From an uncultured Gammaproteobacteria bacterium (GTDB lineage Bacteria; Patescibacteriota; Microgenomatia; Woykebacterales; RBG-16-39-9b), in NCBI GenBank assembly GCA_964349395.1, contig CAYGGA010000003.1:1424-65423 (forward strand): a DNA stretch of 64,000 bases. The letters are read 5' to 3'. How positions within the stretch are numbered: position 1 is the first letter of the stretch; every line of letters begins with the position of its first letter. The notes under the pieces were generated by a model. That model did not search any database. It was not told where the DNA came from and was given only the letters and a program-made list of their open reading frames with translations. Shown here piece by piece: positions 6,092-54,049 of the stretch. Position numbers and translations under genes: made by a program.

Positions 6092-6108
6092 GAAAGGAGG
6101 TGAATAAA

Positions 6109-6702: not shown

Positions 6703-6712
6703 GAGGGGAATA

Positions 6713-9012: not shown

Positions 9013-9059
9013 AGGAAAGTAGCTGATCAAGCTTTGGAAAGCTGTATCAGCTACTGTAG

Positions 9060-14548: not shown

Positions 14549-17095
14549 TTAATAATTAGCCAATAAAACTAGCATACCAGCTCTTTTTAAGAGCCGCAAT
14601 CCTCTCTCATCGCGGGCAAATTTCTGGAGCAGGACTTCCCCGCGATCAGCTGAGGTAATCAAAAGTTGGAGTTTTTCACTGGTAATTGTCTTTTCAATAT
14701 CATAGTTGTCGACTTCCTGGTACTTACCTTCAGTATAATAACCAGCCACTTTGGTACTCACCCCGTTTAGTAGCAGTAAATTTTGGCTTCTTCCTTGGTA
14801 TTCAGGACTTAGAATTAGGTCAGCCAAATCTTGGTTGGCATTAGGAGGCGTGATCTTGGTTGTGACTGATGGTAAATTAATATACAGAGGCAACGAGATT
14901 ATCAAAATGACTGGGATAGCGTACTTTACCAGTTTTCCAACGCGCAGATGGTTGAGAGAATGCTTTTGGTAATATTTATAAGTAAGATACACAATAAGTA
15001 GTGACAGCAAGGGTGTCAAAGCGAAAATATTCGGTAAGTGACGGAAATAATTTTGCATAAAAATTACCGGGTCATAAATAACGCTGTAGAGATGCCATGG
15101 TAAAAAGATCAGTAAAAATACGGTTAGATTGACATTGATAAGCAACCCTTTCTTAAGTAGAGTTCGATTCCAGTTTAGTAGTAATAAAAGGTAAATTGGC
15201 AAAAATAGAATAGTAAGTAAACCATCAGTTAGGCTAGCTAACCCCAAAGAGACGCCACTGAGAAGAAAAAGGTGACGGTGTTTTTTACTAAGTTGTAAGG
15301 TATAAATAGAAAGCAAAATAAAGAATGCTGCCATAATTTCCGTATTGACACTACGAGTGAGATAGACAAAAGGTGTGATAAACAGACTTAGCAGGGCTGT
15401 CACAGTAGCCCAGTAACGGTTAATTAGTTGCCTCGCAATAAGATAAGTGAGGAAAATTGCCCCCACTCCAAAGAGGGCCGGCAAAAAACGAATGATAAGA
15501 TTTGGTACGCTCAAATAGAGATGAATAATATTGGTTGATAACCAGTAAAACAAAGGTGGGTAGGACAGATAAGTTGCGCCCTGGTAAGTAGGTACCAGCC
15601 AGTTAGTATTGCGATACATTTCACGAGCAACGGTTGCCAAAACCGCTTCGGAGCTAATGACATTAGTCGATCCCAACCTGTAGAAAATAACAAAGATTGC
15701 TGAGAGTAAGACCGAAACTGCCGGAATAATCTCATACCAATTTAGAGTCTCTTTTTTTTCTCCGTCTGCTAAAACTACCCCTTCTTTCATCAACCGCTCA
15801 AACACCATGGTAAAAAGTAATGCTAAAAAGATGTAAAACCAAAAAAATTCTAAGTTGTAGGAGTAGAAGATTCCCCCAGTCCAAATTCCGATCAGGCCAC
15901 TTAGGAATCCAATGGAGTAAATTTTGACAGTTTTATTATGACTGTGACGAATAAGTTTAATAAGTGATTTAAGAATTAGAATGACAAAAGCTAAATAGAC
16001 AGACAGACCAACCAACCCAGTCTCTGTGATAATCTCAAACCAAACAGAGTGAGCCGGAATTCTCACATCCGCGGGGTCAACTCTAGAGTGTTCCATCCCC
16101 GTTTCACTCTGGCGAAACTTTTCAGAAAAACTACCATAACCAATTCCGAAAATTGGGTTTTCTGTAAAAAGCTCAACTTCACCCCGAAGCAATAGGTAAT
16201 GAGCCTTGGTAGAAGGTTCTTCAAGGTCAACTACGGATTTTACCCTATCAAGTAAAGAACGTCCGGTAGCATTGGAAACAAAGATTACCAGTCCTGATAT
16301 GGCAATGGCCCCAAGTAAGGGTAAAATCTTGCGGTAATACCCCGACTTGATTCCTAAAATTAATATGACCAGACTACCTACTATTAAGGAAAGTAGCCCA
16401 CTTCGGGAAAAGGAGTAAAGAATGACAAAAGAGATCAAGAAATAAGCTAACCACCAGAAAGCTTTTGGCCAGAATTTTTTTTCGAGCCATGAAAAAGCTA
16501 CCACCATGGGGGCAATCATGCTCAGGTAAGCCGCAAAATGATTAGCGTCAAAAAATGTTCCGGGTAAGCGTATATAGTCTCCCCCACTTAGAACTCCAGG
16601 AAGATTATGTCCAATAAAGGTAATTACTACATACTGAAACAAACCATAAAAACCAACTACAAGACCAAAAAGGACAAAAGCTCGCACCAATTTGATTACA
16701 AAAAATCTCGATGGCAAAAGAATCGACCTCATCAAAATGTATAGACTTATCATCGCTGTGTAGAAAGCGAAAAGCTCGACACTGGCACCAAGATTACCAC
16801 TTTGCATGAGTGATACTAATCTTATCAACCAGAGTACTCCTAAAAGGCGGAAAACATTGTCCCCTGAAAGTTCTTTGACTGCTTTAGTGAAATTTAGTGT
16901 CTTTTTAGTGATACCCTGAAAAATAAAGTAAACTCCTGCCAAGATTAGAAAGAGCAATAAAATTCTTACGGGCACAATTTTGTTATAGAGGATACTCATA
17001 CGAGAGTGGTCAGCTAAGGGAATTAAGACTACAAAAAGTAGCAGACTGTATTGGAAAAATTCTAAAAAGTTTGTAATTTTAGGCAGTTTTGGCAT
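14549..17095 (-). CDS. Fusion membrane protein: N-terminal O-antigen ligase/polymerase-like (Wzy_C) domain plus C-terminal GT-C (PMT/ArnT-like, GT39/GT83) domain
   Basis: N-terminal half is multi-TM with the YSFSRSGLLSLIVG motif (Wzy_C SRG signature) and a large loop. C-terminal half has a loop-1 acidic motif SSEAVLATVAREMY...YPPLFYW, as in ArnT/PMT. 848 aa. Confidence 0.5.
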   Translation of the reverse strand: MPKLPKITNFLEFFQYSLLLFVVLIPLADHSRMSILYNKIVPVRILLLFLILAGVYFIFQGITKKTLNFTKAVKELSGDNVFRLLGVLWLIRLVSLMQSGNLGASVELFAFYTAMISLYILMRSILLPSRFFVIKLVRAFVLFGLVVGFYGLFQYVVITFIGHNLPGVLSGGDYIRLPGTFFDANHFAAYLSMIAPMVVAFSWLEKKFWPKAFWWLAYFLISFVILYSFSRSGLLSLIVGSLVILILGIKSGYYRKILPLLGAIAISGLVIFVSNATGRSLLDRVKSVVDLEEPSTKAHYLLLRGEVELFTENPIFGIGYGSFSEKFRQSETGMEHSRVDPADVRIPAHSVWFEIITETGLVGLSVYLAFVILILKSLIKLIRHSHNKTVKIYSIGFLSGLIGIWTGGIFYSYNLEFFWFYIFLALLFTMVFERLMKEGVVLADGEKKETLNWYEIIPAVSVLLSAIFVIFYRLGSTNVISSEAVLATVAREMYRNTNWLVPTYQGATYLSYPPLFYWLSTNIIHLYLSVPNLIIRFLPALFGVGAIFLTYLIARQLINRYWATVTALLSLFITPFVYLTRSVNTEIMAAFFILLSIYTLQLSKKHRHLFLLSGVSLGLASLTDGLLTILFLPIYLLLLLNWNRTLLKKGLLINVNLTVFLLIFLPWHLYSVIYDPVIFMQNYFRHLPNIFALTPLLSLLIVYLTYKYYQKHSLNHLRVGKLVKYAIPVILIISLPLYINLPSVTTKITPPNANQDLADLILSPEYQGRSQNLLLLNGVSTKVAGYYTEGKYQEVDNYDIEKTITSEKLQLLITSADRGEVLLQKFARDERGLRLLKRAGMLVLLANY

Positions 17096-19375: not shown

Positions 19376-20920
19376 CTAGCGCCAAGTGTAAAGATAAAAT
19401 CCATTCTTTAGTTTTGTTTCCTGACAAGGGCCATGTTGTTTTAGTAAATCTTTCTGACAAGGCACCAATTGCTGTTGATGATCTAGTAGCAAACCCTTCT
19501 CCTCCAGTGGTGCTGTGTTTACTAAACGTCGGTACTCAGGGTAACGAGCCTCGATAGGCGGATTGTCTCTCGTAGCGGCGATTATTTCTTCCCCTGATTC
19601 TAAAACCAGGTGGTAAGAAACCAAGGCATGAGTATCCACATACTTGATGTTTTTTTCTCTTAGGGTCTGGATGGTTTCTTTTAGGTCAACCTGGGAGACA
19701 AAGGAACCTACAGGAACTTGAGTTAGACCAAAAATTTGGGTTCCTAAAACAATCAAGTAGAGTCCCATGGCTAAGCCTTTATTAAATCTTTCTTTTATTT
19801 CTTTAACCAGAAAAACTATTAAAATAGGGAGCGCAGTGTAAAGTGGGCCAATATAACGTGGCTCCTCAATGAATTGGTTGAAGGGAGAAGAAAAACTAAA
19901 AATTATAAAAACTGAAAGCGAAAAAAGTAAAATTAAATCCACTGGCTGCAAACTGAAAGCGATTTTTAACCTCGGAGTTAAGGTAATTAGTCCAAAAGAC
20001 AAAGTTTTCAAAACATCCAGTAGTCTTTTCACTAGCAACCACCCGAACGCAAGTAGGTAGATACCACTTACCAAATAAGTAAGCAGGGTAGAGAAATCCA
20101 CTCGGGAAAAAGGCTTTCTAAGCCCAAACATAATCGGCAGGCCCACGGTAAAAAACTCCACCATGGCTTTTTTCACTCCAAACGGTTTATGGAAAAGAGA
20201 TTGGGTATTGAGATTTGAATGATTGATGTTAAAAACAATTACGGTCAGGCTACCTAGAACAAACCCTAGAATTCCTGCTAAAAATAGCCTAGTTAAAAAA
20301 ATCTTCGGTTTCCAAAAAAAGACAAAGGCTGCTGAAGGCAGCAAGTAGTAGATGATTGTGGGTTGCACCCAATAACCAAGCCCCGCAAAAATACCCATAA
20401 GGAAAAAAGAAACCGTCTGTGCTCTGGAATTTAGTTTGTCATAAACATTCTTGATAATCAGAATAAAAATTAGATTTCCAAAAACCATGGTCTCCGGGTA
20501 CCCAGTACCAGCGCGAGTCGTCCAATTCATCCAAAAGGGGCTAGTTATGGCAGTTAACAGAAGAGATAAAAGAGCATAGTTTCTCGAGTTAAAAACCAAC
20601 TTTGCTAGAAAGTAAGAACTAAAAAGAAAACCAATGGAAAAAAGAAAGATAGGTAATTTTACTAAGTAATCATGAATTCCAAAGAGTCCAAAAAAGGCCG
20701 CTGTAACAAACGCACTCAAAGTCCCAGTGTAGTTTTGATTGTAATAAAAAACACTCCTCTCCCCTTGCAGGATATTTAAGGCCTGGACGCCATAAACTGC
20801 TTCATCCGCACTCAGCCTAGTTTCTGGAGCCATCATATAATAAAGTCTTAAACCAATCCCAACTAAGAGAATGATCCAAAACCCAATTTTGAAATTTAGG
20901 GGGGTTAATTTAAAACTCAT
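19376..20920 (-). CDS. GT-C glycosyltransferase (ArnT/PMT-like, GT39/GT83); polyprenyl-phosphate-sugar dependent
   Basis: TM1, then loop motif RLSADEAVYGVQALNILQG (DE motif). More than 10 TM helices. 514 aa. Confidence 0.55.
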   Translation of the reverse strand: MSFKLTPLNFKIGFWIILLVGIGLRLYYMMAPETRLSADEAVYGVQALNILQGERSVFYYNQNYTGTLSAFVTAAFFGLFGIHDYLVKLPIFLFSIGFLFSSYFLAKLVFNSRNYALLSLLLTAITSPFWMNWTTRAGTGYPETMVFGNLIFILIIKNVYDKLNSRAQTVSFFLMGIFAGLGYWVQPTIIYYLLPSAAFVFFWKPKIFLTRLFLAGILGFVLGSLTVIVFNINHSNLNTQSLFHKPFGVKKAMVEFFTVGLPIMFGLRKPFSRVDFSTLLTYLVSGIYLLAFGWLLVKRLLDVLKTLSFGLITLTPRLKIAFSLQPVDLILLFSLSVFIIFSFSSPFNQFIEEPRYIGPLYTALPILIVFLVKEIKERFNKGLAMGLYLIVLGTQIFGLTQVPVGSFVSQVDLKETIQTLREKNIKYVDTHALVSYHLVLESGEEIIAATRDNPPIEARYPEYRRLVNTAPLEEKGLLLDHQQQLVPCQKDLLKQHGPCQETKLKNGFYLYTWR

Positions 20921-22398
20921 TTAAGTCCTTTTTTCTTGGCGAGTAGTCTTACCCCATCATCTACCAAAACCTCATAAGTGCCTAGACTCCTAATTTCTTT
21001 TTTAAAACTTTCTAAAGCTTCGTATTTGTAAAAAGAATCTGAGGTTTCTAGATTTGTTAAAACTAAATAATCAGGGCTCTGCCTACCCAATAAACTGGGT
21101 TCGAACGAATAAATCTCTTTTCTCTGGCTTAGGTGAGGTACCCACGAGGACTGCGCTCCCACACTCACATCCGAGGGAATCATTTTCAAAACTTCATAGT
21201 TTTTCTTCAAATCCTGCGATAACTCGTAGGATTTCGGGTTGATAATTCTCGTCAAGGGACCATTATTGCGGTAAGTAAAGTAAAGAGGTGAAATAATCAG
21301 CACAATCGATACTACAGGTAGGAGATAACTACTCACCTTATCTTTGATTTTTAACTTCCTTGAGACCCATAAGAGATTAGAAATAGCATTGATTGTTGCA
21401 ATTGCAAAGATCACGCCCAAAATAGCTGAATACTGGAACCGGATGATCCACCGCTGAATCAAGGTTGTCAAGAATCTTTCGGCAATGTTAGGAAAAGTTA
21501 AGACCAAAGTTTCTGGACTAAGCAGAGGCAGAAAAGCAAAAGAACCAATCAAATTGAAGGTTGTTTTGATCTTGATTAAATGGTCATCATAAAAAGCAGC
21601 CTTAGCTACGAGAAAGGGATTGGTAATGGATTTTACGACTAGATCTAAGCCAGTTTTACCAATCTCAGGAGGCAAGTGTTCATAAGCAAAAATGTCTTTC
21701 TTAAAGAAAGGAATAATATAACTAGTGATTATAAAGTAGCTAGCAAGTCCTACTCCGACGGTAATTAGCCCGATTTTATAGAGTCTCAATCGAATCACTC
21801 CATAAACTCCTAACATCGCTACGTATAGAGGCATATCTTCTTTGACCAAAAGACTCAGACCAATCATCAGGAAATAAAGTTTGATCCTTTTGTCATGCAG
21901 AAAAAGAATTGCAAAAGCAAATAGTGGCAAACCAAAGGCAATTTCATGAAAATCATAATCAATCAGCGTCTGCACCCCAATGAAGGTCAGGTAGGCAAAT
22001 GCAATTGCCAGCCCAAAATATTTTTTCTTGAATCGATTGACGGCTAGTTGGTACAATGGCCAAGCAGCAATGCCCACCGCTAACGCTTGAGCTACCAGAA
22101 TTCCAGACACATCTTTCCATATCCAATAGATCGGAGCTAAGAAAACCAAGATGGGATGGAAATGGTCACCAAGTAAATTGGCCCCAGGAGTCGTGCCAAA
22201 TTTGACAGTGCTCATTGGGGCTTCAAAGTGTGAATAATGCCAGAGTGCTTGGTCAAAAATTCCTAGGTCCACAGCGTCGGTTTGAAAATGAAGGTGGCGG
22301 TTTATACTCCACAAAGCATAAACAACAATAAAAAAGGTGATTAGGAACAGAATTTCCCAATGCACTCTAATTTTAGGCCAAAGTTTCATCCTTTTCAT
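20917..22398 (-). CDS. DUF2079-family polytopic membrane protein
   Basis: Conserved HFHPILVFLAPIYWIW block. Multi-TM N-terminal half, extracytoplasmic C-terminal domain. Paralog of 25091-26569. Confidence 0.5.
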   Translation of the reverse strand: MKRMKLWPKIRVHWEILFLITFFIVVYALWSINRHLHFQTDAVDLGIFDQALWHYSHFEAPMSTVKFGTTPGANLLGDHFHPILVFLAPIYWIWKDVSGILVAQALAVGIAAWPLYQLAVNRFKKKYFGLAIAFAYLTFIGVQTLIDYDFHEIAFGLPLFAFAILFLHDKRIKLYFLMIGLSLLVKEDMPLYVAMLGVYGVIRLRLYKIGLITVGVGLASYFIITSYIIPFFKKDIFAYEHLPPEIGKTGLDLVVKSITNPFLVAKAAFYDDHLIKIKTTFNLIGSFAFLPLLSPETLVLTFPNIAERFLTTLIQRWIIRFQYSAILGVIFAIATINAISNLLWVSRKLKIKDKVSSYLLPVVSIVLIISPLYFTYRNNGPLTRIINPKSYELSQDLKKNYEVLKMIPSDVSVGAQSSWVPHLSQRKEIYSFEPSLLGRQSPDYLVLTNLETSDSFYKYEALESFKKEIRSLGTYEVLVDDGVRLLAKKKGLK

Positions 22399-25090: not shown

Positions 25091-26569
25091 TTATAGTTTT
25101 TTTAACAAGGTTGTACCCTCTCGATCAAAAATCACTTCCCACTCGGGCAAGGTTTTTACGTAGTCGATCAGCTTGAGAAACTCCTCTTTGGTCTGTGGAC
25201 GCCAGTGAAAGGCGTTCGCTGACAGAAGTAAATACTCTGCTCTTTCAGGAATAGCATACTCTTCGGGCTTCGCCTCGGGAGGTAAATCCTCTTCGCGGTC
25301 ATCAGCAGCGTTGGAAGGATCAGGATATTTGAGGATGTGATCACGGTGGGAAAGGTGAGGCTGCAGGGCGGACTGAGTCCCAATACTTGCCTGAGGTGGA
25401 ACCAATTTTAAGGCTTCAAAAATTGCCCCACTTCCCTGAATAGGTATGTAAAAACCAACTTTCAAAAGGTTTAAAAGCGGCATTTGGTAAACTATAGTCA
25501 CTGCCAAAGTGAGGACTAACATGAGACTCACAACTATCTGAATATAACTTCTCTCCACGACATCCGGCAGTTTAAAAGGGGGGAGTATTTTACCTAGATT
25601 CACTAACCCAAAAATAGCTCCATAAGCTAGTATCGGCCCTTGGTTAGAAGAGTAATGCATCCAAGGAAGATGACGTTGCAAAGTGTCGTTTAAAAATCTT
25701 TCTGCCAAAAAAGGACTCAGAATCAGTAGGAAAGAAGGTGACAGTAATGGCAGAAAAGCAAAAGAAGCAAACATACTGATCATAGTTCGTAATTTTACTA
25801 ACGGGGTGAAAAAATAAACGACCGCTCTCACCGGATTTAAAATTGCGTTAACTATAATCTGCGTAGGTGAATCTCCTAGTTGAGAGACAAAATAACCATA
25901 TTTCCTCCCTACAAAATAGGGCATTATTTTATAAATCACCACATAGAAATAAAATAGGGAGATAAATAAAGTAGCCGCTCCAATTAGGTATTTTCTTTTG
26001 AAAAGTAGATAAACTCCTAAGACCATCCCAAATAAGGGGATATCTTCCTTGCAAATTAAGGCTAGTACCAACATTGGCCAGTAAAGAGCCCATTTTTCCT
26101 CCAAGACTGCGTAAATAGTCCAGGCGATAAAAACAATTGAAAAAGTGGCTAAGTGAAAAGGAAAGATAGTTCCTGCTTGAAAACCAAAGTAAAGTAAGTA
26201 ACCAATTATGAAAAGGATAGCCCAAATTTCTTTTACCTTGAGGTGTTTCTTAAAAGTTAGGTAAATCGGGATAGCACTTAAAACAATTGATAGGGTTTGC
26301 AGCAAAAGTAAAACTATCACTGAATCCCAGAGCCAGTACAGGGGTGCGATCAAAACTTCGATTAGCCCAAAATGGTCACCAAAAGCATTGTGGTCTTTGA
26401 AAGAGCTAATTGCCAATCTCCCCTGGGACAAAAACCAGATCTGCTGGTCATAAATGCCTAAGTCCGAATCAGTAGTGGAGTAATTGAAGTGAAGCCGGAG
26501 AATCAAAAATAAATAACCAATAAAAAAGGTTGTTAACACAATCCAAACTGGTTTATTGAGTCTTGCCAT
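25091..26569 (-). CDS. DUF2079-family polytopic membrane protein (paralog)
   Basis: GDHFGLIEVLIAPLYWLW corresponds to the HFHPILVFLAPIYWIW block of 20917-22398. Same size and TM layout. Confidence 0.5.
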   Translation of the reverse strand: MARLNKPVWIVLTTFFIGYLFLILRLHFNYSTTDSDLGIYDQQIWFLSQGRLAISSFKDHNAFGDHFGLIEVLIAPLYWLWDSVIVLLLLQTLSIVLSAIPIYLTFKKHLKVKEIWAILFIIGYLLYFGFQAGTIFPFHLATFSIVFIAWTIYAVLEEKWALYWPMLVLALICKEDIPLFGMVLGVYLLFKRKYLIGAATLFISLFYFYVVIYKIMPYFVGRKYGYFVSQLGDSPTQIIVNAILNPVRAVVYFFTPLVKLRTMISMFASFAFLPLLSPSFLLILSPFLAERFLNDTLQRHLPWMHYSSNQGPILAYGAIFGLVNLGKILPPFKLPDVVERSYIQIVVSLMLVLTLAVTIVYQMPLLNLLKVGFYIPIQGSGAIFEALKLVPPQASIGTQSALQPHLSHRDHILKYPDPSNAADDREEDLPPEAKPEEYAIPERAEYLLLSANAFHWRPQTKEEFLKLIDYVKTLPEWEVIFDREGTTLLKKL

Positions 26570-27741: not shown

Positions 27742-29064
27742 ATGATTTTAACTACCTTTATGTGGGAAAAACTAAAAGAAAATAAACTGGTTTTAATCCC
27801 TAGCTTGATTGGTCTTGTTACCCTTTTTTATGGCTTGGGAAGTCATTACCAAAAATTGGTCAGTGATGAAATGACCTTTTTTCTGAATGCCGATTTTCTC
27901 AAAGGAGACCCGTACTACCCTTACCTTATTCTTCCTGAAGGGATAGGCACTACTCACACTCTACTGCCTTATCTAATCGGCTTCTCACTCGAAATTTTTG
28001 GTTACACAATCTTCGGTCTTAGATTTGTTCCAGCTCTTTTTGGGCTTTTGGGAATTGCAGTTTTTTTCTTCTTGGTAAAAGGTATGGTCAACAAACACAG
28101 ATCCGCTTTGCTAGCCGCCACTTTATTGGCGCTTACTCATTGGTATATCGCAATTTCCCGAGTTGCGATTGAACTCTCTGAAATCCTCTTTTTTACGATC
28201 CTAAATCTATATTGTCTATCTTTGTTTTTAAATGTGGATCCCTCTACTGCCACTATTGGCAACTTTAAAATTAAGAAAAAGTATATCTTTATCCTCCTAA
28301 CTGGTCTGACCTTTGGACTAGTCCAACATACCTATCAATCAGCTCGAGTTTACTTACTTTTTTATATCCTTTTCTTCCCAATTTATTGGTGGGTGAAAAA
28401 AGTCCGCTTGAAAGAAATGGTCGTTTACAGTCTCCTTTTTGCCTTAGGTTTTATAATTACCCTCTCTCCTCTCATTTTTGCATACCTGCAGCACCCTGAA
28501 AGTTTTGACTCTCGGAAAGGGGAACTAGTCTTCTACCAAAACCTAGGCCCACAAGATTTGCTTTGGTCTCTCAAAGAAAGCACTTTTAGAACTTTAGGAA
28601 TGTTTCATTTTAGAGGTAGTGATGTTAGCTGTTACAATGTTCCCGCTAGACCCATGCTTGACCCTTACTCCAGTTTTTTCCTAATAATTGGCTTTGTCCT
28701 CGCTCTTAAAAATTTTAGAAGGGAAGTCAATTTAGTTTTATTACTTTTCTTTGCGGTAGCTTTAGTTCCCAGTATTATTTCTTATTGGCCAGCCGCCCCA
28801 CACGGCCTAAGAGCATCTGGAGTCATCATTCCGACCATGGTCTGGGTAGGTTTGGGACTAGAAAAAACCAGTCAATTATTTAAAAAGTACCAATGGATTT
28901 TTCTAATCTTCGCCCTCTTAATAATTGGCTATTTAAATCTAAAAACTTATTTTGTTGATCAGGCATCCTTACAAACAGACTGCTTTAGAATTGACGTGGG
29001 GGATTTCCAAAAATATAAGGATCAGTTCTTGGAGTTTACAGAAGGTGTAAAATATATCCGATGA
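27742..29064 (+). CDS. GT-C glycosyltransferase (ArnT/PMT-like, GT39/GT83)
   Basis: Loop-1 motif KLVSDEMTF after TM1, then multiple TM helices. 440 aa. Start uncertain because only 35 bp separate it from the divergent gene. Confidence 0.5.
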   Translation: MILTTFMWEKLKENKLVLIPSLIGLVTLFYGLGSHYQKLVSDEMTFFLNADFLKGDPYYPYLILPEGIGTTHTLLPYLIGFSLEIFGYTIFGLRFVPALFGLLGIAVFFFLVKGMVNKHRSALLAATLLALTHWYIAISRVAIELSEILFFTILNLYCLSLFLNVDPSTATIGNFKIKKKYIFILLTGLTFGLVQHTYQSARVYLLFYILFFPIYWWVKKVRLKEMVVYSLLFALGFIITLSPLIFAYLQHPESFDSRKGELVFYQNLGPQDLLWSLKESTFRTLGMFHFRGSDVSCYNVPARPMLDPYSSFFLIIGFVLALKNFRREVNLVLLLFFAVALVPSIISYWPAAPHGLRASGVIIPTMVWVGLGLEKTSQLFKKYQWIFLIFALLIIGYLNLKTYFVDQASLQTDCFRIDVGDFQKYKDQFLEFTEGVKYIR

Positions 29065-30041
29065 AGAAACTTCTAAAAGTTGGAGTGGTCGGGGTTGGTG
29101 TCATGGGTGCTGAGCATGCTCGTGTCTACTCTACACTAAAAGGCTGCCAACTAGTGGGGGTTTATGATAACCATAAAAGCCTTGCAAAAAAGGTGGCTAG
29201 AAAACTAGGTGTTACTTCCTTTCAAAATTTGGATGATTTACTGAAGGAAGTAAAGGCAGTAAGCGTGTGCACCCCAACAACCACCCATTTTGATGTTGCC
29301 TCCAAAGCTCTAAACCAAAGGGTCGCGGTTCTGATCGAAAAACCCATCGCTAATACCCTTGAAGAGGCGGAGAAACTCATCAAGCTAGCCAAGATAAATA
29401 AAACGACCTTGTCCGTGGGTCACATCGAACGATTTAACCCGGTTATTGAGACTCTTAAAAAGAGATTAGAGAAACAAAAAGTCATCTCAATAAATATTAC
29501 TAGGCTGGGTCCTATACCACCAAGAATTAAAGACGTCGGAATTATATTAGATCTTGGAACTCATGATATTGACTTAATCAGGTATTTAACTAAAAGTCAT
29601 TTTGAGAAGATAAATTCAGTTTTTTCTAGCAAATCGAATAAATTTGAAGATGCGGCCATTTTAAGCTTTCAGATGAAAAACAAGACTATTGCCTCAGTAA
29701 TTACCAATTGGTACACTCCATATAAAGTCCGACAGATCGAGGTGGCGACCATGGACAAACTTTTGGTGGGTAATTTGATGAGTCAGCAAGTAGTGGAGTA
29801 CTCCAACTACGATGGTTCCGGGTCTTATGTAACGAAAAGTTTGCCTGTTAAATATACTGAACCTTTATATGAAGAGTTGAATAGTTTTACCCAAGCAATC
29901 AGTAGTAACAAAAAGCCACGAGTCTCGGGTTTAGATGGCCTGGAGGCGGTTAGAGTGGCTCTTTACTGCCAAAAACTAGTTGCGGATAAGCAACCAAACA
30001 AAGTCACGGAAAGCCAAAACCGGAGTCCAAAGTTTAACTGA
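29061..30041 (+). CDS. Gfo/Idh/MocA-family NAD(P)-dependent sugar oxidoreductase
   Basis: KVGVVGVGVMGAEHARVY Rossmann motif and EKPIA motif. Confidence 0.7.
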   Translation: MKKLLKVGVVGVGVMGAEHARVYSTLKGCQLVGVYDNHKSLAKKVARKLGVTSFQNLDDLLKEVKAVSVCTPTTTHFDVASKALNQRVAVLIEKPIANTLEEAEKLIKLAKINKTTLSVGHIERFNPVIETLKKRLEKQKVISINITRLGPIPPRIKDVGIILDLGTHDIDLIRYLTKSHFEKINSVFSSKSNKFEDAAILSFQMKNKTIASVITNWYTPYKVRQIEVATMDKLLVGNLMSQQVVEYSNYDGSGSYVTKSLPVKYTEPLYEELNSFTQAISSNKKPRVSGLDGLEAVRVALYCQKLVADKQPNKVTESQNRSPKFN

Positions 30042-30659
30042 GCTTGGTTTTTGGTTAGGATAATGAGTCACTTTCACTGAACTAATCTTGTACCCGTACC
30101 TAGAAGCCTTGATTAGCCGTTCTGCTTCCCCAAATACACTGGTTGATTTAATCTGGATTTTTTTATAAATGGAGGTTTTGAAAAGTTTGGCACAACCAGC
30201 ATCGTAAGGGTCAAAACCAAAAAACAACTTGATGAGGAGATTAAACCCCCAAGACATCGTGTGCCGAAAAAGATTGTACTCTTTACTTATCCTCTGGGCC
30301 ACCACAATGTCATTACCCTGCTTCAGCTTCCGAATCATACCAGGCAGAATGGTCATCCTAATTTCATTGTCTGCCCCATTGAAAAAGGTAGTTTTCCCTA
30401 AAGCATTTTTGTATAAGTCCTTTAGACTCGGCTCAATACCCAAATTAACAGGGTGAGTAATAATTCTTATTTGGGGGTATTTTTTTCCAAGCTTAGTGAG
30501 AAGCAAAGGTGTATTATCTCTACTACCATCATCCACAACCAAGATTTCATAACTAATCTTTAATTTATCCGCGACCTTAACTGCAAGAAGAACGGCTTTT
30601 TCAATATTGTCTTCTTCGTTATAAGCGGGGATCGCTATTGTCAGATCCAAGTTCTTCAT
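29976..30659 (-). CDS. GT2 glycosyltransferase, Dpm1/GtrB-like
   Basis: LTIAIPAYNEEDNIEKAV...ILVVDDGSRDNT. Confidence 0.7.
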   Translation of the reverse strand: MKNLDLTIAIPAYNEEDNIEKAVLLAVKVADKLKISYEILVVDDGSRDNTPLLLTKLGKKYPQIRIITHPVNLGIEPSLKDLYKNALGKTTFFNGADNEIRMTILPGMIRKLKQGNDIVVAQRISKEYNLFRHTMSWGFNLLIKLFFGFDPYDAGCAKLFKTSIYKKIQIKSTSVFGEAERLIKASRYGYKISSVKVTHYPNQKPSSVKLWTPVLAFRDFVWLLIRN

Positions 30660-31296
30660 ATAAATTCTGGAGGTCTGCTACTGAATTTAAAACTTCCGCA
30701 GCGCCACTGCCTTCTAATTCTTCTCTACTACTAACTCCGGTTAAAACACCAATTCCTAAAACACACGCCTTAACCGCCGCCTGCATGTCGTAGATAAAAT
30801 CGCCCACTACCCAAACTTCCTCTTTTTTAATTTTTAGCTTCTCTAGTGCCCATAGTATCCCATCGGGAGATGGTTTTACATTAGTTACTGTCTCTCTACT
30901 CACAATAATCGCGAATTTTCCTAGCCCAAATTTTTCGAGTTCATTTTCGATAGCGGAGAGAGAAGTTCGAGAGAAGATACCAACTAAAACCTCTTTTCGA
31001 CTAAAGAACGCTAAGGTTTCTTTTACCCCTTTTAAAAGGTTGGATTCTTTAGTAGCTTGGTCCTCGACTTGATTGATAAATCCCAATGCCTGATAGACTA
31101 GGGTATTTTGTTCCTCCTTGTCACTACTGACTAATCTTGCTGCTTCCCTTATCTTAGGTAAAACCGGTTTAAAATCAAAATCATCTTGAAGTCCTCGATC
31201 GCGGAATAATTTTCTAATTCTATCTCGAGCCAATTCATAATCAGTCCCAGTTCTGATCAAGGTCCCGTCAAGGTCAAACAGAATTAGTCTAACCAT
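30619..31296 (-). CDS. HAD-superfamily hydrolase/phosphatase
   Basis: Motif I LILFDLDGTLI at the N-terminus. GDFIYDMQAA motif IV-like near the C-terminus. Confidence 0.65.
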   Translation of the reverse strand: MVRLILFDLDGTLIRTGTDYELARDRIRKLFRDRGLQDDFDFKPVLPKIREAARLVSSDKEEQNTLVYQALGFINQVEDQATKESNLLKGVKETLAFFSRKEVLVGIFSRTSLSAIENELEKFGLGKFAIIVSRETVTNVKPSPDGILWALEKLKIKKEEVWVVGDFIYDMQAAVKACVLGIGVLTGVSSREELEGSGAAEVLNSVADLQNLYEELGSDNSDPRL

Positions 31297-31303
31297 AGCT
31301 CTC

Positions 31304-32350
31304 CTAAATCTTTATTGAAGTCCACTTGTTATTTTTTACCATCACCGGCCCACCATCGGGTATCCTCATCCAGTAAATATTCGATTTTACACTATTGTAA
31401 GGAGCTACTTTCCTTGGTGTTTCTCCATAAGCAAGCTGGGTGTAAATATAGGGCATATTGACTCCGGCGGCTGCAAAAAAAAGTGAGGTGGTAAAAAATC
31501 TACCTGGATTGATTTCCATAACGCAGGGTACTCCCAGTCTATTTTCCTTAGTATCCACCACGTAAATCCCTTCTGGTTTTTTGTCCAGGGCCAAAACAGT
31601 CTTTGTCCCAACCTCGTTTACTTTGCTGCTACTAACAGTTCTCTGAATTGCGGTCGTCCCAGTGACTCCACTAGGAGACAGTCCAGCTTCCACCCATTCC
31701 ACTCTTTCTTTGCCTTGAGAACAAACCAGCAATCCATCTTTCCAAACACTAAGCCAAGACACCTCCGTCCCAGTGAGAGTCTCACTCGCCAAAAAATCAG
31801 ACCATTTAAGCCCTTTGCCCAGCCAATAGCTTACCCACATTTTGGCTTGTTCAAAAGATGTTACCGGTAGACTGGCTTTACCTCCATGCCCAGTACTTGC
31901 TCTCAACCAAATTGTCCCTTTTATCTCTTTGAAAGCTTCAGTTAAACTTGCTTTATTCTTAAGCCGGATAGTAGCGGCAACCGGCACTTGGGCCTCAGTT
32001 AAAGCAAGGTAGGTTTTCCACTTGTCATGACTAATCTCAACCGCTTTCGGAGAGGGTAAAAGAGTTTTAGCTTTTATTTCATGTCGATAATCAGAGATTA
32101 TTCTAACTTCAGGATCAGGCTGGGCATGAACAAAATCAATCTTCTCTTTTTTAATAATCTTGTTAATAGTTTGAATGTAATCTTTTTCATTTCCCTTAGA
32201 ATGAGAGACCAGATACCTTTTGTTTACTGGAGCCATCTCGATGTAGTATTTATTAACATCCAAGCCCACGATGTAGCATCTCTCCGGAGCGAGACGAAGA
32301 GCTTTGATATAATTAATACCTGCGGAACCACCACAACCTAAAATTAAAAT
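31304..32350 (-). CDS. ATP-grasp family ligase
   Basis: The central and C-terminal regions are ATP-grasp-like. The in-frame upstream extension, stop-bounded at 32369-32371, encodes RILILGCGGSAGINYIKAL, a nucleotide-binding pre-ATP-grasp motif. The track GTG start at 32269 therefore looks truncated. The likely start is a non-AUG codon (ATT 32350 or ATA 32359) after an AAGGAGG at 32364-32370. Confidence 0.5.
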   Translation of the reverse strand: MLILGCGGSAGINYIKALRLAPERCYIVGLDVNKYYIEMAPVNKRYLVSHSKGNEKDYIQTINKIIKKEKIDFVHAQPDPEVRIISDYRHEIKAKTLLPSPKAVEISHDKWKTYLALTEAQVPVAATIRLKNKASLTEAFKEIKGTIWLRASTGHGGKASLPVTSFEQAKMWVSYWLGKGLKWSDFLASETLTGTEVSWLSVWKDGLLVCSQGKERVEWVEAGLSPSGVTGTTAIQRTVSSSKVNEVGTKTVLALDKKPEGIYVVDTKENRLGVPCVMEINPGRFFTTSLFFAAAGVNMPYIYTQLAYGETPRKVAPYNSVKSNIYWMRIPDGGPVMVKNNKWTSIKI

Positions 32351-32368
32351 TCTTTTTATTTTGCCTCC

Positions 32369-34000
32369 TTACCACAACTTGTTACGATAGGTTATTGGGA
32401 TATCAACAATTGTAGGCTTTCTACTTTTTAGTGCCCTCCGGAGAGTTGGTAGTAATCCTGTTTCGGGAGTGACTCTAAGACCTAAACCACCATAAGCTTC
32501 TGCCAGCTTCACAAAATCGGGATTTTTGTACTCTACCCCGTAGTTACCACCAAACGCTTTCTCTTGTTCGTACTTAATAATACCATAGGCATTATCGTTT
32601 AAAATTAAGACTTTAATAGGGATTTTGTGTTCCACCGCAGTGATAAATTCTGAGGATGTCATCTGAAAACCACCATCTCCCACCACCACAATGACGTTTT
32701 TATTAGGGAGAGCTAATTTCGCCCCAATCCCACCCGGCATAGCATAGCCCAAAGTGGACTGCCCATTGGAAAAAACTACTGACTTAGGAAGAGGTGCCTC
32801 ATAAAAAAGACCCATAACTTGTTTATGCTCACCCACATCAACAATAATTATGTCATCTTTGCCTAATATAGTACTCAATTTTTTAACAAAAGCTAAAGGG
32901 TTGATGGGGTAAGTATTAGTACTAAATTTTAACTGGTTTATACCAAATCTTTGAATCTTTCTTTCCGGGAACTTTTCTCTTACAGATTCCCCGCTATTTA
33001 AAACAGCAAAAAATTCCTTCAGATTGCAAATTATTTCCATATCTGGATTGTAAAATTTACCCCCAGTTTTGCTATCAGTATCGATGTTAATAACCTTCGG
33101 CACTTCCCCTTGAGACCAAACTTTAGGAGTGATTCCTTCGCTGTAATCATAGCCAATATTTATAAGCACATCGACTTCTTTTAAAATCTCGGTGGTTGTC
33201 TGCAAATGGCGGCTCATAACTCCTAGGTAAAGAGGGTGATCAGGTGGGATAATTCCCTTACCATGAAAACTAGATAAAGCGTAAATTCGATACTTTTCCA
33301 TAAAATGAAGTAGCTCGCGACTCGCACTTTGCCTGGCCACACTTGCCCCCACTAAAAGTAACGGAAATGTAGCTTTTTTTAACTCTTTCAAAAAAAGATC
33401 CACTTTGGGCAAAGGTAATTTTTCCCTCACACCTTCGACCCGAAGTGGCATTTTGTCTATTTCCTCTTCAAAAACATCAACCAATAGCTCAACGTGCACA
33501 GGTCCAGGCCTTTCTTCCACTGCTTTTTGGAAGGCATAATCAATAATAGTGGGGATTTCCTCAATATTGTCAATTCGAAGGCTGCGTTTAGTCTTGTGTT
33601 TAAATTCCGCGGACATATCAATGTATTGATGAGCATCTTTGTGCCACATTGACTGGGGTAGTTGAGCACTTAGACAAACAACAGGAGACCTGTCTAGATT
33701 GGCAGTAGCAATAGAAGTGGAGATATTTGTCGCTCCCGGTCCCAAGGTAGTGTAACAAACACCAGCCTTTCCAGACATTCGCCCATACAAATCAGCCATA
33801 TAACCAGCATTTTGTTCATGAGTAGTTCTGATGAAAGTTATTTTTTTACTCTTCCGCAACTCGCGAAAGATAAACGTCTCACTAACGGCCTTCTTTCCAT
33901 GAGTATCTCCTGGAACACCGAAAATATATTCGACACCATTTTTTTCTAAGGCTTTAATAAGAATTTCTGCACCATTCATCATTTTTGCCTGCTCCTTCAA
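32369..34000 (-). CDS. Thiamine-diphosphate-dependent enzyme, acetolactate-synthase-like (three-domain ALS/YerE/sulfopyruvate-decarboxylase family)
   Basis: N-terminal ThDP-Pyr domain GVEYIFGVPGDTH. C-terminal ThDP-binding motif GDGGFQMTSSEFITAV...NDNAYG (GDG-x24-NN-like). Confidence 0.65.
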   Translation of the reverse strand: MKEQAKMMNGAEILIKALEKNGVEYIFGVPGDTHGKKAVSETFIFRELRKSKKITFIRTTHEQNAGYMADLYGRMSGKAGVCYTTLGPGATNISTSIATANLDRSPVVCLSAQLPQSMWHKDAHQYIDMSAEFKHKTKRSLRIDNIEEIPTIIDYAFQKAVEERPGPVHVELLVDVFEEEIDKMPLRVEGVREKLPLPKVDLFLKELKKATFPLLLVGASVARQSASRELLHFMEKYRIYALSSFHGKGIIPPDHPLYLGVMSRHLQTTTEILKEVDVLINIGYDYSEGITPKVWSQGEVPKVINIDTDSKTGGKFYNPDMEIICNLKEFFAVLNSGESVREKFPERKIQRFGINQLKFSTNTYPINPLAFVKKLSTILGKDDIIIVDVGEHKQVMGLFYEAPLPKSVVFSNGQSTLGYAMPGGIGAKLALPNKNVIVVVGDGGFQMTSSEFITAVEHKIPIKVLILNDNAYGIIKYEQEKAFGGNYGVEYKNPDFVKLAEAYGGLGLRVTPETGLLPTLRRALKSRKPTIVDIPITYRNKLW

Positions 34001-34138: not shown

Positions 34139-35350
34139 ATGGTCAAGAAACTCAAAAATCTTCTCATTTCTCTCACTGTCCTCCTTACCACTTTAGTCCT
34201 TATTTTTCTGGCGGGGGAATTTTGGGTTAGAAATTTTGTATTGGTTAATAAAACTAGTGGCAACTGTGTCCAGGCTGATCCCATCGTAAAATTTAAAGCT
34301 GTACCCAGTAGTGAGTGCAGATCTCAAACCCCAGAATGGAATATTATCAATAAACACAACTCTTTTGGTCTCAGGAACCCCGAGACTACCTTGGAAAAAC
34401 CTGCAAATACATTTAGAATTTTGTATTTAGGAGATTCGTTTGTCCAAGGATATGGAGTCGCTGAGGAAAAAAGCTTTGTCAGAACTTTGGAAAAGAAGCT
34501 CAACGAAAAATACTCCGGGAGTCCAAAAATTGAAGTAATCAATGCCGGGGTTCCTAATTACTCCCCTCTAATTGAGTATCTCTATCTTAAAAATGAAGGG
34601 GTTAAGTTTAGTCCTGATTTGGTAATTCTTGAATTTGATATGACTGACTTCTCCAATGACCTAGCTTACAGTCGTGAAGCAGATTACGATGAGCGAGGCG
34701 AACCAATTGCCGTCCCTGCAACCCCGTCGGCTAGTCCCAGGCCTCAAGAAGCTACCTCTCAAGCCATCTCTACTCCCGCCTCAACTCCAAAAATGGCTGA
34801 TAAAAAACTGTTGCCCTTCCTGCCAAGCAATATTAAGCAATTTTTCCATGATAATTCAGTTTTTTACAAATGGCTCTCCACCCAGTTTAAAATCCTCTTA
34901 GGACAACCTTTAGCTGATCCAGAGAAAGAGGGAATTGAGAATTTTTACACCATTGTGAAAGAAGACAAACAGTATGATGACAAACTTTGGGGAAACCCAA
35001 AGAAGAATCTAAAATTAATCAATGAAATACTTAAAGAAGAAAATATACCTTTTATAGTCAGCGCTCACCCACACGCGATTTTAGTAAGTGGTACTGAGTG
35101 GAGCACGGGTAGACTATTGCATGGTCTTGAGAGAGGCAAAGTTTATGATGCACGTTACTTTACCCAAATGGATACGTTTCTAAAAGAAGAAGGAATTTCT
35201 TTTATAAATCTACTTAGCTACTTTAGAGACGACAAAAAGGAAAAGTATTTTCCTTTTGATGGCCACTTTAATAACCATGGACACGAGGTGGCCGCTAATG
35301 GTATTTACCAAGAACTAACAAAATTGGATTTGATAAAGAATAAAGACTAG
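34139..35350 (+). CDS. SGNH/GDSL-family hydrolase, membrane-anchored (possible polysaccharide O-acyl esterase/transferase)
   Basis: N-terminal TM, GDSL block RILYLGDSFVQGYG, C-terminal DGHFNNHGH (catalytic Asp/His region). Pro/Ser/Thr-rich linker PATPSASPRPQEATSQAISTPASTPK. Confidence 0.6.
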   Translation: MVKKLKNLLISLTVLLTTLVLIFLAGEFWVRNFVLVNKTSGNCVQADPIVKFKAVPSSECRSQTPEWNIINKHNSFGLRNPETTLEKPANTFRILYLGDSFVQGYGVAEEKSFVRTLEKKLNEKYSGSPKIEVINAGVPNYSPLIEYLYLKNEGVKFSPDLVILEFDMTDFSNDLAYSREADYDERGEPIAVPATPSASPRPQEATSQAISTPASTPKMADKKLLPFLPSNIKQFFHDNSVFYKWLSTQFKILLGQPLADPEKEGIENFYTIVKEDKQYDDKLWGNPKKNLKLINEILKEENIPFIVSAHPHAILVSGTEWSTGRLLHGLERGKVYDARYFTQMDTFLKEEGISFINLLSYFRDDKKEKYFPFDGHFNNHGHEVAANGIYQELTKLDLIKNKD

Positions 35351-52782: not shown

Positions 52783-54030
52783 TTACTTTTTGAGTGAAGC
52801 AAAAAAGCGGTCAAAAACACTCGTCATGTAGTCAATGTCACTTTTTTTGATTTCTTGATGGCAACCAATGTAAAAGCCATTATGATCGACCCATTTAGCC
52901 ACGGGGTATTGATCTTCAATCTCACCAAATATCTCTTTATACACGGGTTGGCTCAAAAGGGGCATCAAGTTTCTGGTTTCTATTCCGGCTGCTTCTAAGA
53001 AGAAGATTAAATCTTCACGACTAAAGGGGGCATCTTTTTCCACGACGATGGGAAACATCATAAAAGCATGCTCAGTCTCTGGTCTTACTTTTGGTAACTG
53101 TAGATAATTGGAGTATTTCCTTAGCCTACGCAGAAGTGCTTGAGCATTACGCCAGCGCTTTTTTAGCATCTGATCTTTGGTCTCAAGCATCGCCACCCCA
53201 AGAGCTCCTTCCATCTCGGTGCCACGGTAACTATAGCCAACATGAACAAAAGAGAATCTTCTTTCCACAATCTTAAACAGTTTACTCTTGTCTTGAGTGT
53301 CGTCGTCGTCAATGGAAATATAAATACTGTCGCGACCATGATTATAAAGACTTTTAATCAGGACCGCGAGATCATCATCATTGGTAAGTGTTAAACCACC
53401 GACGCCAGTGACGATCAGATGAGCTACGTAAGTAGAAAAACAAGCTACATCTCCCCAAGAACCAGTGGGCTTACCCTTGTACTTCACAAACATCGTCTCA
53501 CATGAATCCTCGATCACCCGCAGATTGTGTTTCTTGGCTATTTCCATAATCGGATCCATATCGCAAGGCTGACCAAAAAGGTGAACTGGCATGATAGCTC
53601 TGGTTTTTTTGGTGATTTTAGCTTCAATCTTAGATGGGTCGATCTCGTAATAAACCGGGTCAATATCAACAAAAACTGGTTTTAGATTGTTTTGAATAAT
53701 GACATTGGAGGACGCTACAAAAGTAATCGCGGGCACCAAAACCTCGTCACCATCTTCCCAACCATATTTTTCTTTTAGGGCGTGTAGACCTACCTGAAGA
53801 GCCGAGGTACCAGAATTACAAAAAAGGGCGTACTTGCGATCATGAAGAGAAGCAAACTCTGACTCAAATCTCTGCGTAAAAGGTCCATAAGAAAGACGAT
53901 TACTATCTAAAACTTGGCGGACATATTTTTTGGCTTTAGGAGAGATAAAAGTACCACCAACACCAATTGTTCTTTCAGGTTTATTCGAAGAAAAGCTCTG
54001 CTTATTCGCAGAAAAACTATGTTTATTCAT
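52783..54030 (-). CDS. DegT/DnrJ/EryC1/StrS-family PLP-dependent sugar aminotransferase
   Basis: Fold-type I aminotransferase blocks (FCNSGTSALQV; DSCETMF; catalytic Lys region). The likely start is the internal ATG at about 54030. The track start would overlap the upstream gene. Confidence 0.65.
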   Translation of the reverse strand: MNKHSFSANKQSFSSNKPERTIGVGGTFISPKAKKYVRQVLDSNRLSYGPFTQRFESEFASLHDRKYALFCNSGTSALQVGLHALKEKYGWEDGDEVLVPAITFVASSNVIIQNNLKPVFVDIDPVYYEIDPSKIEAKITKKTRAIMPVHLFGQPCDMDPIMEIAKKHNLRVIEDSCETMFVKYKGKPTGSWGDVACFSTYVAHLIVTGVGGLTLTNDDDLAVLIKSLYNHGRDSIYISIDDDDTQDKSKLFKIVERRFSFVHVGYSYRGTEMEGALGVAMLETKDQMLKKRWRNAQALLRRLRKYSNYLQLPKVRPETEHAFMMFPIVVEKDAPFSREDLIFFLEAAGIETRNLMPLLSQPVYKEIFGEIEDQYPVAKWVDHNGFYIGCHQEIKKSDIDYMTSVFDRFFASLKK

Positions 54031-54049
54031 ACGGAAAGTATATCCAAAT

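Follow-up and report, generated by a model that had tools for sequence, protein, structure and literature searches.

A conserved operon of acetolactate-synthase-like, ATP-grasp and HAD phosphatase genes in a glycan locus of a probable CPR bacterium: a possible sugar-tailoring module with a probable ATA start codon

The genes in this report lie in a 64-kb stretch of contig CAYGGA010000003.1 from an uncultured bacterium, probably of the candidate phyla radiation (CPR) and of Microgenomates type. The whole stretch of 64,000 nucleotides, here called the window, is a glycan locus, and positions are given in its numbering. Four genes on the minus strand are arranged, by their open reading frame (ORF) coordinates, as one tightly packed operon in the order ThDP>ATP-grasp>HAD>GT2. 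They encode a thiamine diphosphate (ThDP)-dependent, acetolactate-synthase-like enzyme of 537 aa (32369-33982); an ATP-grasp carboxylate-amine ligase of 351 aa from the PRK12767 "carbamoyl-phosphate-synthase-like" group (31304-32359); a HAD-superfamily phosphatase of subfamily IA with a C1 cap (30619-31296; Pfam HAD_2/Hydrolase); and, as the last gene, a Dpm1/ArnC-like family 2 glycosyltransferase (GT2) that is a probable polyprenyl-phosphate sugar synthase (29976-30659; Pfam Glycos_transf_2). We treat the four as a single operon because only 9 nt separate the ThDP stop codon from the ATP-grasp start and 7 nt the ATP-grasp stop codon from the HAD start, while the HAD and GT2 genes overlap by 41 nt. 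Convergent to the operon, on the plus strand, is a gene for a Gfo/Idh/MocA oxidoreductase (29061-30041) nearest to archaeal UDP-GlcNAc 3-dehydrogenase.

A preliminary description of this DNA had placed a module of HAD, ATP-grasp and ThDP genes at 30619-34000, next to Dpm1-like and Gfo/Idh/MocA genes, and all five are found there. The minus-strand ORFs of that interval run for 543 codons from TTG 34000, for 321 codons from GTG 32269 and for 225 codons (31296-30619). The ThDP gene probably starts at ATG 33982 and not at TTG 34000; AAGGAG lies 9 nt upstream of this ATG, which is also the start used by public gene calls (537 aa). The promoter and terminator scan gave no more sites than shuffled sequence does; those near the operon are a weak promoter-like site before the ThDP gene and, at the GT2 end, a terminator-like hairpin.

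Translation of the ATP-grasp gene very probably begins at an ATA codon (32359-32357). From the ThDP stop codon (TAA, 32371-32369) to GTG 32269 there are 33 in-frame codons without ATG, GTG or TTG, and these translate to (I)KRILILGCGGSAGINYIKALRLAPERCYIV. The TAA is followed in frame by GGA GGC AAA, the ATA, AAA AGA, an ATT (32350-32348), TTA ATT TTA and then GGT TGT GGT GGT TCC GCA GGT, the codons of the motif GCGGSAG; the earlier claim that the nucleotide-binding motif is encoded ahead of the first AUG or GUG is thus borne out. A run of 33 codons free of canonical starts has a chance of about 0.2 by an estimate from base composition and is not improbable per se; no other of the 55 long window ORFs has one as long. 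A perfect Shine-Dalgarno (SD) sequence, AAGGAGG (32364-32370, minus strand), overlaps the ThDP stop codon and lies 4 nt before the ATA and 13 nt before the ATT.

The start codon was compared in a DNA alignment of nine orthologous loci, in which one (L089) is 75% identical to the window. The ATA aligns exactly with the initiator ATG of seven of them (L089, L088, L003, L084, L085, L004 and L005). A diverged Logan assembly from a different sequencing run and sample (L001; 90% aa identity) likewise has ATA, with synonymous changes across the GCGGSAG codons and with TGA instead of TAA as the upstream stop, and the window sequence, ATA included, is borne out by an ENA contig (L002) that is nearly identical to it. 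Over codons 2-33 the window and L001 differ by 0.057 nonsynonymous changes per site (dN) against 0.383 synonymous changes per site (dS), a dN/dS of ~0.15, from which we infer that these codons are translated and under purifying selection. Within the nine aligned loci a GGAGG SD is restricted to the two ATA lineages, which have it as AAGGAGG (window) and GAGGAGG (L001); at that position the orthologues with ATG carry AAAGAAG or no recognisable SD. Strong SD sequences (at least 5 nt, placed 4-12 nt upstream of the start) precede 7 of the 55 long window ORFs, and the ThDP, ATP-grasp and HAD genes account for three of the seven. AAGGAGG itself is not enriched over the window (11 copies, 13.3 expected), so the SD argument rests on position and on the comparison with orthologues and not on counts.

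That the N terminus does not come from the ATA appears rather improbable, whichever of four ways it is supposed to arise. An ATT start is allowed in genetic code table 11, and the preliminary description had left the choice between ATT and ATA open when it proposed a non-AUG start after a perfect AAGGAGG; both the non-AUG start and the SD stand, but the codon is very probably the ATA, since ATT 32350 is unaligned with the orthologues' methionine and its 13-nt distance from the SD falls outside the spacing found in the window. GTG 32269 is the start chosen by public gene callers, but the truncation would drop the first strand, the invariant glycine loop and the first helix, whose codons are under purifying selection, and the product might be inactive. 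Stop read-through would give a ThDP/ATP-grasp fusion, and the ThDP stop codon and the ATP-grasp frame are indeed in phase in both the window and L001; such a fusion is not conserved, however, as the stop differs between the lineages (TAA versus TGA), and in L088, L004 and L086 the genes either overlap or are read in different frames. A sequencing error is countered by the same codon in three independent assemblies (the window, ENA L002 and Logan L001) from two lineages. Against an ATA start it can be said that a distance of 4 nt from the SD is among the shortest for window genes.

Initiation at the ATA would be driven by the perfect AAGGAGG, and because this SD overlaps the upstream stop codon, coupling of ThDP and ATP-grasp translation by termination and reinitiation is plausible. 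An ATA start would also be expected to yield less ATP-grasp protein than an ATG would give; in Staphylococcus aureus, ccpN, infC and citZ have AUA or AUU starts with extended SD sequences and reach ~10-30% of AUG output (PMC13009471). Public records from NCBI, ENA and Logan (P0001, P0002, P0241 and P0242) start the ATP-grasp protein at GTG 32269, for a length of 321 aa, because common gene callers weigh only ATG, GTG and TTG and never ATA, and this form omits 30 conserved N-terminal residues. Two other short family members, P0054 (338 aa, L096 7001) and P0035 (345 aa, L097 3473), were considered as further non-canonical starts and rejected: both have an upstream in-frame ATG, and their short calls are ordinary gene-caller errors.

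The ATP-grasp protein matches Pfam ATP-grasp_3 and PylC-like_N and the NCBIfam model PRK12767 ("CPSase-like"). Its homologues are ~351 aa long and begin MKRILVLGCGGSAG. The GCGGSAG motif occupies residues 8-14 and is present in all homologues, with G8 invariant and G11 conserved in at least 90% of 37, so that the absence of the motif in homologues, which would have spoken against the non-AUG start, is not what was found. In an AlphaFold2 model (pLDDT 93.2), residues 2-7 form strand beta1 and residues 12-22 form helix 1; a protein started at the GTG (residue 31) would, by this model, lose beta1, the loop and helix 1. Foldseek neighbours of the model are PDB 2pn1, RizA, BacD, PurK, PurD and biotin carboxylase, with E values from 1e-14 to 1e-17. 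All three domains of a carboxylate-amine ligase are predicted, the N-terminal one being a Rossmann-like pre-ATP-grasp domain; the fold is that of the ATP-grasp carboxylate-amine/thiol ligase superfamily and is nearest to the L-amino-acid ligases, PurK and PurD. The family is uncharacterised, and names in the source records are only generic.

The ThDP enzyme contains all three TPP_enzyme domains (Pfam TPP_enzyme_N/M/C). Its best NCBIfam match is PRK08322, at 474.3 bits against a cut-off of 509 and with 36-40% identity to members; the AlsS models are also below cut-off (362 versus 510 bits for NF006378 and 323 versus 551 for TIGR02418), as is the IlvB model TIGR00118 (356 versus 538). Among relatives in the PDB, FAD-independent catabolic acetolactate synthase (ALS) scores 270 bits, CEAS 216, AHAS 207, pyruvate oxidase 157, glyoxylate carboligase 154 and 5ahk, which we take to be the YerE homologue PpYerE, 118; BbmA ranks between CEAS and AHAS. 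HEQNA (with the catalytic Glu), the AlsS-type IGYDxxE..PKxW and GDGGF..NDNAY all align with the catabolic ALS structures. The enzyme thus appears closest to the FAD-independent AlsS/PRK08322-like type, while falling below every curated cut-off. Relative to the catabolic ALS structures it has an insertion of ~7 residues (the THGKKAVSETF region) after GVPG, at residues ~26-34 (window 33880-33910). Pfam scans of window ORFs of at least 150 aa, taking in all except three overlapping or antisense ORFs and covering most of the 64 kb, returned no IlvN, IlvC, IlvD or AlsD. An identity as bona fide IlvB with an IlvN or IlvC partner, which the preliminary description had named as the outcome that would count against its reading, is therefore not what the scores and the scans indicate.

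The remaining enzymes of the cassette are placed more broadly. The HAD protein matches Pfam HAD_2 at 8e-25, and its NCBIfam matches (PpaX-like and phosphoglycolate-phosphatase-like) are all sub-threshold; the catalytic motifs I-IV can be read in its sequence as DLDGT (residues 8-12; of the DxDGT form with the Asp+2 general acid), the Ser/Thr in GIFSRTS, the Lys in NVKPSP and GDFIYD, and its PDB relatives are generic HAD phosphatases. The NCBIfam matches of the GT2 (PgfS, ArnC, PpgS and Dol-P-hexose transferase) are sub-threshold as well, and a GT2 gene occupies the same position in L004, L098 and L088. The Gfo protein scores 286 bits (E 4e-85) with the archaeal UDP-GlcNAc 3-dehydrogenase model NF040723, whose cut-off is 450. 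Upstream of the Gfo gene and overlapping it by 4 nt is a gene for a PMT/GT-C-type membrane glycosyltransferase of 440 aa (27742-29064, plus strand; Pfam PMT and PMT_2), and with this overlap we describe the pair as co-transcribed, converging on the operon. L004, L084 and L098 each have an orthologue of the GT-C gene (436-440 aa) beside the cassette, separated from Gfo by a DegT aminotransferase gene. The window has no DegT gene there, and from this comparison the cassette's own DegT appears to have been lost. Divergent from the operon is a gene for an SGNH/GDSL (AlgX-like) esterase or O-acyltransferase (34139-35350, plus strand; Pfam Lipase_GDSL_2 and ALGX), which is kept beside the ThDP gene in L003, L004, L084 and L098.

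The cassette order ThDP>ATP-grasp>HAD>GT2, with Gfo, GT-C and SGNH genes beside it, recurs in relatives at 56-71% identity, in agreement with the earlier view of a glycan-linked module. The ThDP proteins of these relatives are 63% identical in L003, L084, L085 and L095, 56% in L004 and L098 and 71% in L088. Few ThDP relatives are this close, and in every one checked the gene immediately precedes this ATP-grasp gene within the same cassette; a metagenome scan with the ThDP protein gave one locus only, of a type already known. The ThDP and ATP-grasp genes also occur together in other arrangements. Their order is reversed (ATP-grasp>ThDP) in L096 and L097, with Gfo, DegT and formyltransferase genes around them, together with epimerase or dehydrogenase genes. 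ThDP enzymes at 42-43% identity pair with another ATP-grasp subfamily (24-26% identity; ATP-grasp') as Hexa>Gfo>DegT...SDR>ThDP>ATP-grasp'>MT in L086/87 and as HAD>ThDP>HD>ATP-grasp'>GT2 in L093/94. Adjacency over two ligase subfamilies and in both orders argues that the two enzymes act consecutively. A generic cyanobacterial member of PRK08322 lies in an unrelated gene context.

A one-genome-per-species scan with the ATP-grasp protein found 289 loci, of which the best 80, mostly from Bathyarchaeia and other Archaea with a few from CPR, were analysed together with the window, 81 in all. The HAD gene accompanies the ATP-grasp family in 53 of the 81 and is directly adjacent in 45. Other companions are DUF354 (44 loci), a nucleotide-sugar-dehydrogenase-like gene (35), Gfo (20) and DegT (19), with Gfo and DegT together in 15; of the Gfo/DegT-type loci listed, only 2 have a hexapeptide acetyltransferase. 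Outside Bathyarchaeia the recurrent operon is DegT>Gfo>ATP-grasp>HAD, sometimes with a methyltransferase gene after it. From this distribution the conserved unit appears to be the ATP-grasp-HAD pair, often with Gfo and DegT, across Archaea, the ThDP gene being a lineage-specific addition found in only some lineages; the HAD, ATP-grasp and ThDP genes do not hold together as the unit of three that had been proposed.

Bathyarchaeia (44 loci, e.g., L021, L039 and L069) show a different arrangement, ATP-grasp>HAD>DUF354 followed by a short (~292 aa) nucleotide-sugar-dehydrogenase-like gene. DUF354 is only predicted to be glycosyltransferase-like; it gave no NCBIfam match, and literature on DUF354 and AglU/MMP1084 yielded nothing usable.

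Taken as a whole, these observations make it about an even prospect that the four genes are a cytoplasmic sugar-tailoring operon within a cell-surface glycan locus, with a chemistry read from family and context. They would probably serve to decorate an amino or uronic sugar with an amide, at the expense of ATP, before the sugar is loaded on polyprenyl phosphate. In the scheme that we favor, Gfo and a DegT aminotransferase would make first a 3-keto and then a 3-amino nucleotide sugar; the ATP-grasp enzyme would convert a carboxylate by way of an acyl phosphate into an amide on the amino sugar, in place of an acetyl-CoA-dependent N-acetyltransferase; and the HAD phosphatase would strip a phosphate borne by the ligated partner. 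The neighbourhood pattern over the 81 loci is what suggests that the ligase acts on the Gfo/DegT amino sugar instead of an acetyl-CoA transferase. In this lineage the FAD-independent ALS-like enzyme would build or elaborate the acyl partner from pyruvate or another 2-oxoacid, a role favored over YerE-type branching because of the repeated ThDP-ligase adjacency. Finally, the GT2 would load the finished sugar on polyprenyl phosphate, and after flipping the GT-C enzyme would transfer it outside the membrane, as inferred from family resemblance and conserved synteny. For the HAD step there is a demonstrated precedent in Campylobacter, where the ATP-grasp amidoligase Cj1438C and then the HAD phosphatase Cj1435 act on a glycan (PMC11800379), and by analogy this suggests that the HAD enzyme here removes a phosphate from the ligated partner.

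Several points weigh against this scheme. Every chemical step, the substrate included, is drawn from context, and the amide may be on an amino group or on a uronic carboxylate; many archaeal loci have a nucleotide-sugar-dehydrogenase-like gene and the window has none. The nearest DegT genes of the window (57343-58431 and 52783-54081) are 23-28 kb away. The role given to the HAD enzyme needs a putative phosphorylated partner, and in L086/87, L096 and L097 the ThDP and ATP-grasp genes occur without a recognisable HAD gene. Homology to the Campylobacter enzymes was sought and none was detected: hhalign of the ATP-grasp family alignment with Cj1438C gave a probability of 0.13% (E 0.44), and the best BLASTP E value of the HAD protein with Cj1435 was 1.7.

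One of the other functions that might be proposed is amidation of a uronic acid as in Campylobacter. The ATP-grasp enzyme would activate a C6 carboxylate and couple a phospho-amine such as ethanolamine phosphate or serinol phosphate, the HAD enzyme would dephosphorylate the product, and the ThDP enzyme would contribute to the supply of the phospho-amine precursor; it might, for example, decarboxylate a phospho-2-oxoacid, with transamination of the resulting aldehyde. The ATP-grasp and HAD pairing mirrors Cj1438C and Cj1435, and a nucleotide-sugar-dehydrogenase-like gene is present in 35 of the 81 loci, with a full-length one in L097; CEAS, a close ALS relative (216 bits), uses glyceraldehyde 3-phosphate. 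We nevertheless regard this function as unlikely here, since the Pfam scans found no nucleotide-sugar 6-dehydrogenase in the 64-kb window, the two proteins have no detectable similarity to the Campylobacter pair, and the tightest recurring operon, DegT>Gfo>ATP-grasp>HAD, points to an amino sugar. The amino-acid decoration of uronic acids that had been suggested for this locus finds no local support for the same reason, the want of a 6-dehydrogenase gene in the window. It is also improbable that the ThDP enzyme, like YerE, uses pyruvate to place a branch of two carbons, acetyl or hydroxyethyl, on the keto carbon of the UDP-3-keto sugar made by Gfo while ATP-grasp and HAD carry out a separate, unrelated decoration. 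The enzyme is ALS-like, lies in a glycan locus and is beside a probable sugar 3-dehydrogenase; YerE-like enzymes are established sugar-branching catalysts in lipopolysaccharide synthesis (PMC12247030); and in a window without the cassette's own DegT a keto sugar could be available. The branched product would, however, offer the ligase no new carboxylate or amine, and the ThDP gene is linked to two ATP-grasp subfamilies in both gene orders and not to Gfo as such. The sequence, moreover, is far nearer to catabolic ALS than to 5ahk, the presumed PpYerE, which leaves the YerE analogy of the preliminary description without backing from sequence; what stands of that description is the glycan-linked module and the non-AUG start, and what does not is the YerE-like identity and the decoration of uronic acids with amino acids.

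Quite improbable is a housekeeping or catabolic acetolactate synthase, with the trio making a small soluble metabolite and its position in the glycan locus being incidental. The best family models are named "acetolactate synthase large subunit," and the cyanobacterial PRK08322 member mentioned above is found in an unrelated context; yet all equivalog cut-offs are missed, IlvN, IlvC and AlsD are absent from the window, the GT2 gene overlaps the HAD gene of the operon, and the ThDP-ATP-grasp pair recurs only within glycan loci, in at least five architectures. Returning to amide decoration of an amino sugar, a more specific version may be put forward tentatively and as rather doubtful in its details: the ThDP and ATP-grasp enzymes could together constitute an undescribed amino-sugar N-acylation that uses neither acyl-CoA nor acyl carrier protein, in which the ThDP enzyme would make a branched alpha-hydroxy-beta-keto acid of acetolactate type, possibly phosphorylated, the ATP-grasp enzyme would join it through an acyl phosphate to the Gfo/DegT 3-amino group and the HAD enzyme would trim a phosphate. 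The pair without ThDP would then be a widespread glycan-amidation system of Archaea and CPR bacteria.

The window as a whole contains ~14 family 4 glycosyltransferase (GT4) genes, 8 GT2 genes, three PMT-like GT-C genes, three genes for Polysacc_synt-family (flippase-like) transporters, an initiating Bac_transf gene, a gene for a ManC-like nucleotidyltransferase and two DegT genes. One of the DegT genes belongs to a separate and complete WbpB/WbpD/WbpE-like trio on the minus strand, made up of Gfo/Idh/MocA (58876-59901), hexapeptide acetyltransferase (58428-58883) and DegT (57343-58431) genes. From its gene content this trio (57343-59901) appears to be a second, conventional 3-acetamido-sugar route beside the ATP-grasp cassette. 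On the minus strand at 14549-17095 is a gene for an 848-aa protein in which a PMT-type GT-C domain is joined to a domain of the O-antigen-ligase (Wzy_C) kind, and two DUF2079 membrane proteins are encoded at 20917-22398 and 25091-26569.

At the edge of the glycan locus, three probable secreted proteins are encoded on the plus strand (6100-9012), one camelysin/M73-like, one with a lamin-tail domain and one with RTX calcium-binding repeats. Between the RTX-repeat protein gene and a GT4 gene there are ~1.3 kb (9050-10350) without an ORF of at least 150 aa. The GC content of this region is 0.51-0.535, compared to 0.38-0.42 in the rest of the window. It gave no Rfam match even at E values up to 1 and no tRNA, and its minimum free energy z-scores, from only 20 shuffles, are -2.5 for the plus strand and -2.95 for the minus strand. 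A large structured RNA is one possible identity for the region, and a decayed gene of foreign origin is another.

Surface glycans, whose structures are almost unknown, are a major investment of CPR bacteria and of many archaea not yet in culture. The comparison presented here defines, in dozens of lineages of Archaea and CPR bacteria, a conserved, uncharacterised tailoring pair of ATP-grasp and HAD that is frequently joined by Gfo and DegT, and the lineage-specific coupling of the ligase to an ALS-like ThDP enzyme provides concrete enzymes and candidate substrates. The public annotation of the ATP-grasp protein is corrected from 321 aa to 351 aa. The change from ATG to ATA together with the gain of a strong SD is a clean natural case that should be useful for gene callers limited to ATG, GTG and TTG and that helps in understanding translational tuning inside operons.

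There are precedents both for ATP-grasp amidoligases with HAD phosphatases and for glycan loci that encode ALS-like enzymes, but the present family and the combination seen here are uncharacterised. Among ThDP enzymes, AlsS and PRK08322 are the best sequence matches and have the HEQNA, GDGGF..NDNAY and IGYD..E..PK.W motifs in common with the window protein, which differs in its sub-threshold scores, in the insertion after GVPG and in having no acetolactate decarboxylase partner in the window; its gene context is that of a glycan locus, unlike that of the cyanobacterial PRK08322 member. The YerE-like lyases (YpYerE, ErwE, JanthE and PpYerE) are likewise three-domain ThDP enzymes, members of the decarboxylase superfamily; their genes lie in clusters for cell-surface glycans, and a keto-sugar-forming enzyme is encoded nearby. 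The window enzyme differs from them in the constant coupling of its gene to an ATP-grasp gene and in a sequence nearer catabolic ALS (270 bits) than 5ahk (118 bits), if the latter is indeed PpYerE. For the ligase, the best structural neighbour is PDB 2pn1, a structural-genomics protein from Exiguobacterium named [quoted passage not shown] (E 3.9e-17, TM 0.69/0.78); both proteins belong to the PRK12767 group and both are uncharacterised, but they are only 18% identical.

The start codon resembles the AUU/AUA of infC and the AUA of S. aureus ccpN and citZ in that a weak AUA goes with a strong extended SD and that related lineages keep the pairing (PMC13009471); it differs in being read from DNA and in the overlap of its SD with the upstream stop codon, which suggests coupling. 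At the level of gene arrangement, the cassette shares with Arn/Gtr-type decoration systems a Dpm1/ArnC-like GT2 within the operon and an adjacent PMT/ArnT-like GT-C, an arrangement conserved in relatives, although the tailoring enzymes are different and no dedicated small flippase was identified. It is also similar to the WbpB/WbpE/WbpD 3-acetamido route in that a Gfo 3-dehydrogenase-like gene and a DegT gene flank the ligase in 15 loci. The hexapeptide acetyltransferase of that route is replaced here by ATP-grasp and HAD, and the Gfo protein is below the dehydrogenase cut-off (286 versus 450 bits). In the HS:2 capsule of Campylobacter jejuni, Cj1438C, which is TupA-like, forms a sugar amide with a phosphorylated partner and Cj1435 then dephosphorylates it (PMC11800379). 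The window ligase is PRK12767/PylC-like instead of TupA-like and is a separate protein without a fused GT2; no gene for uronic-acid formation lies in the window, and the proteins are without detectable sequence similarity. What the two systems share is a glycan locus in which genes for an ATP-grasp ligase and a HAD phosphatase occur together.

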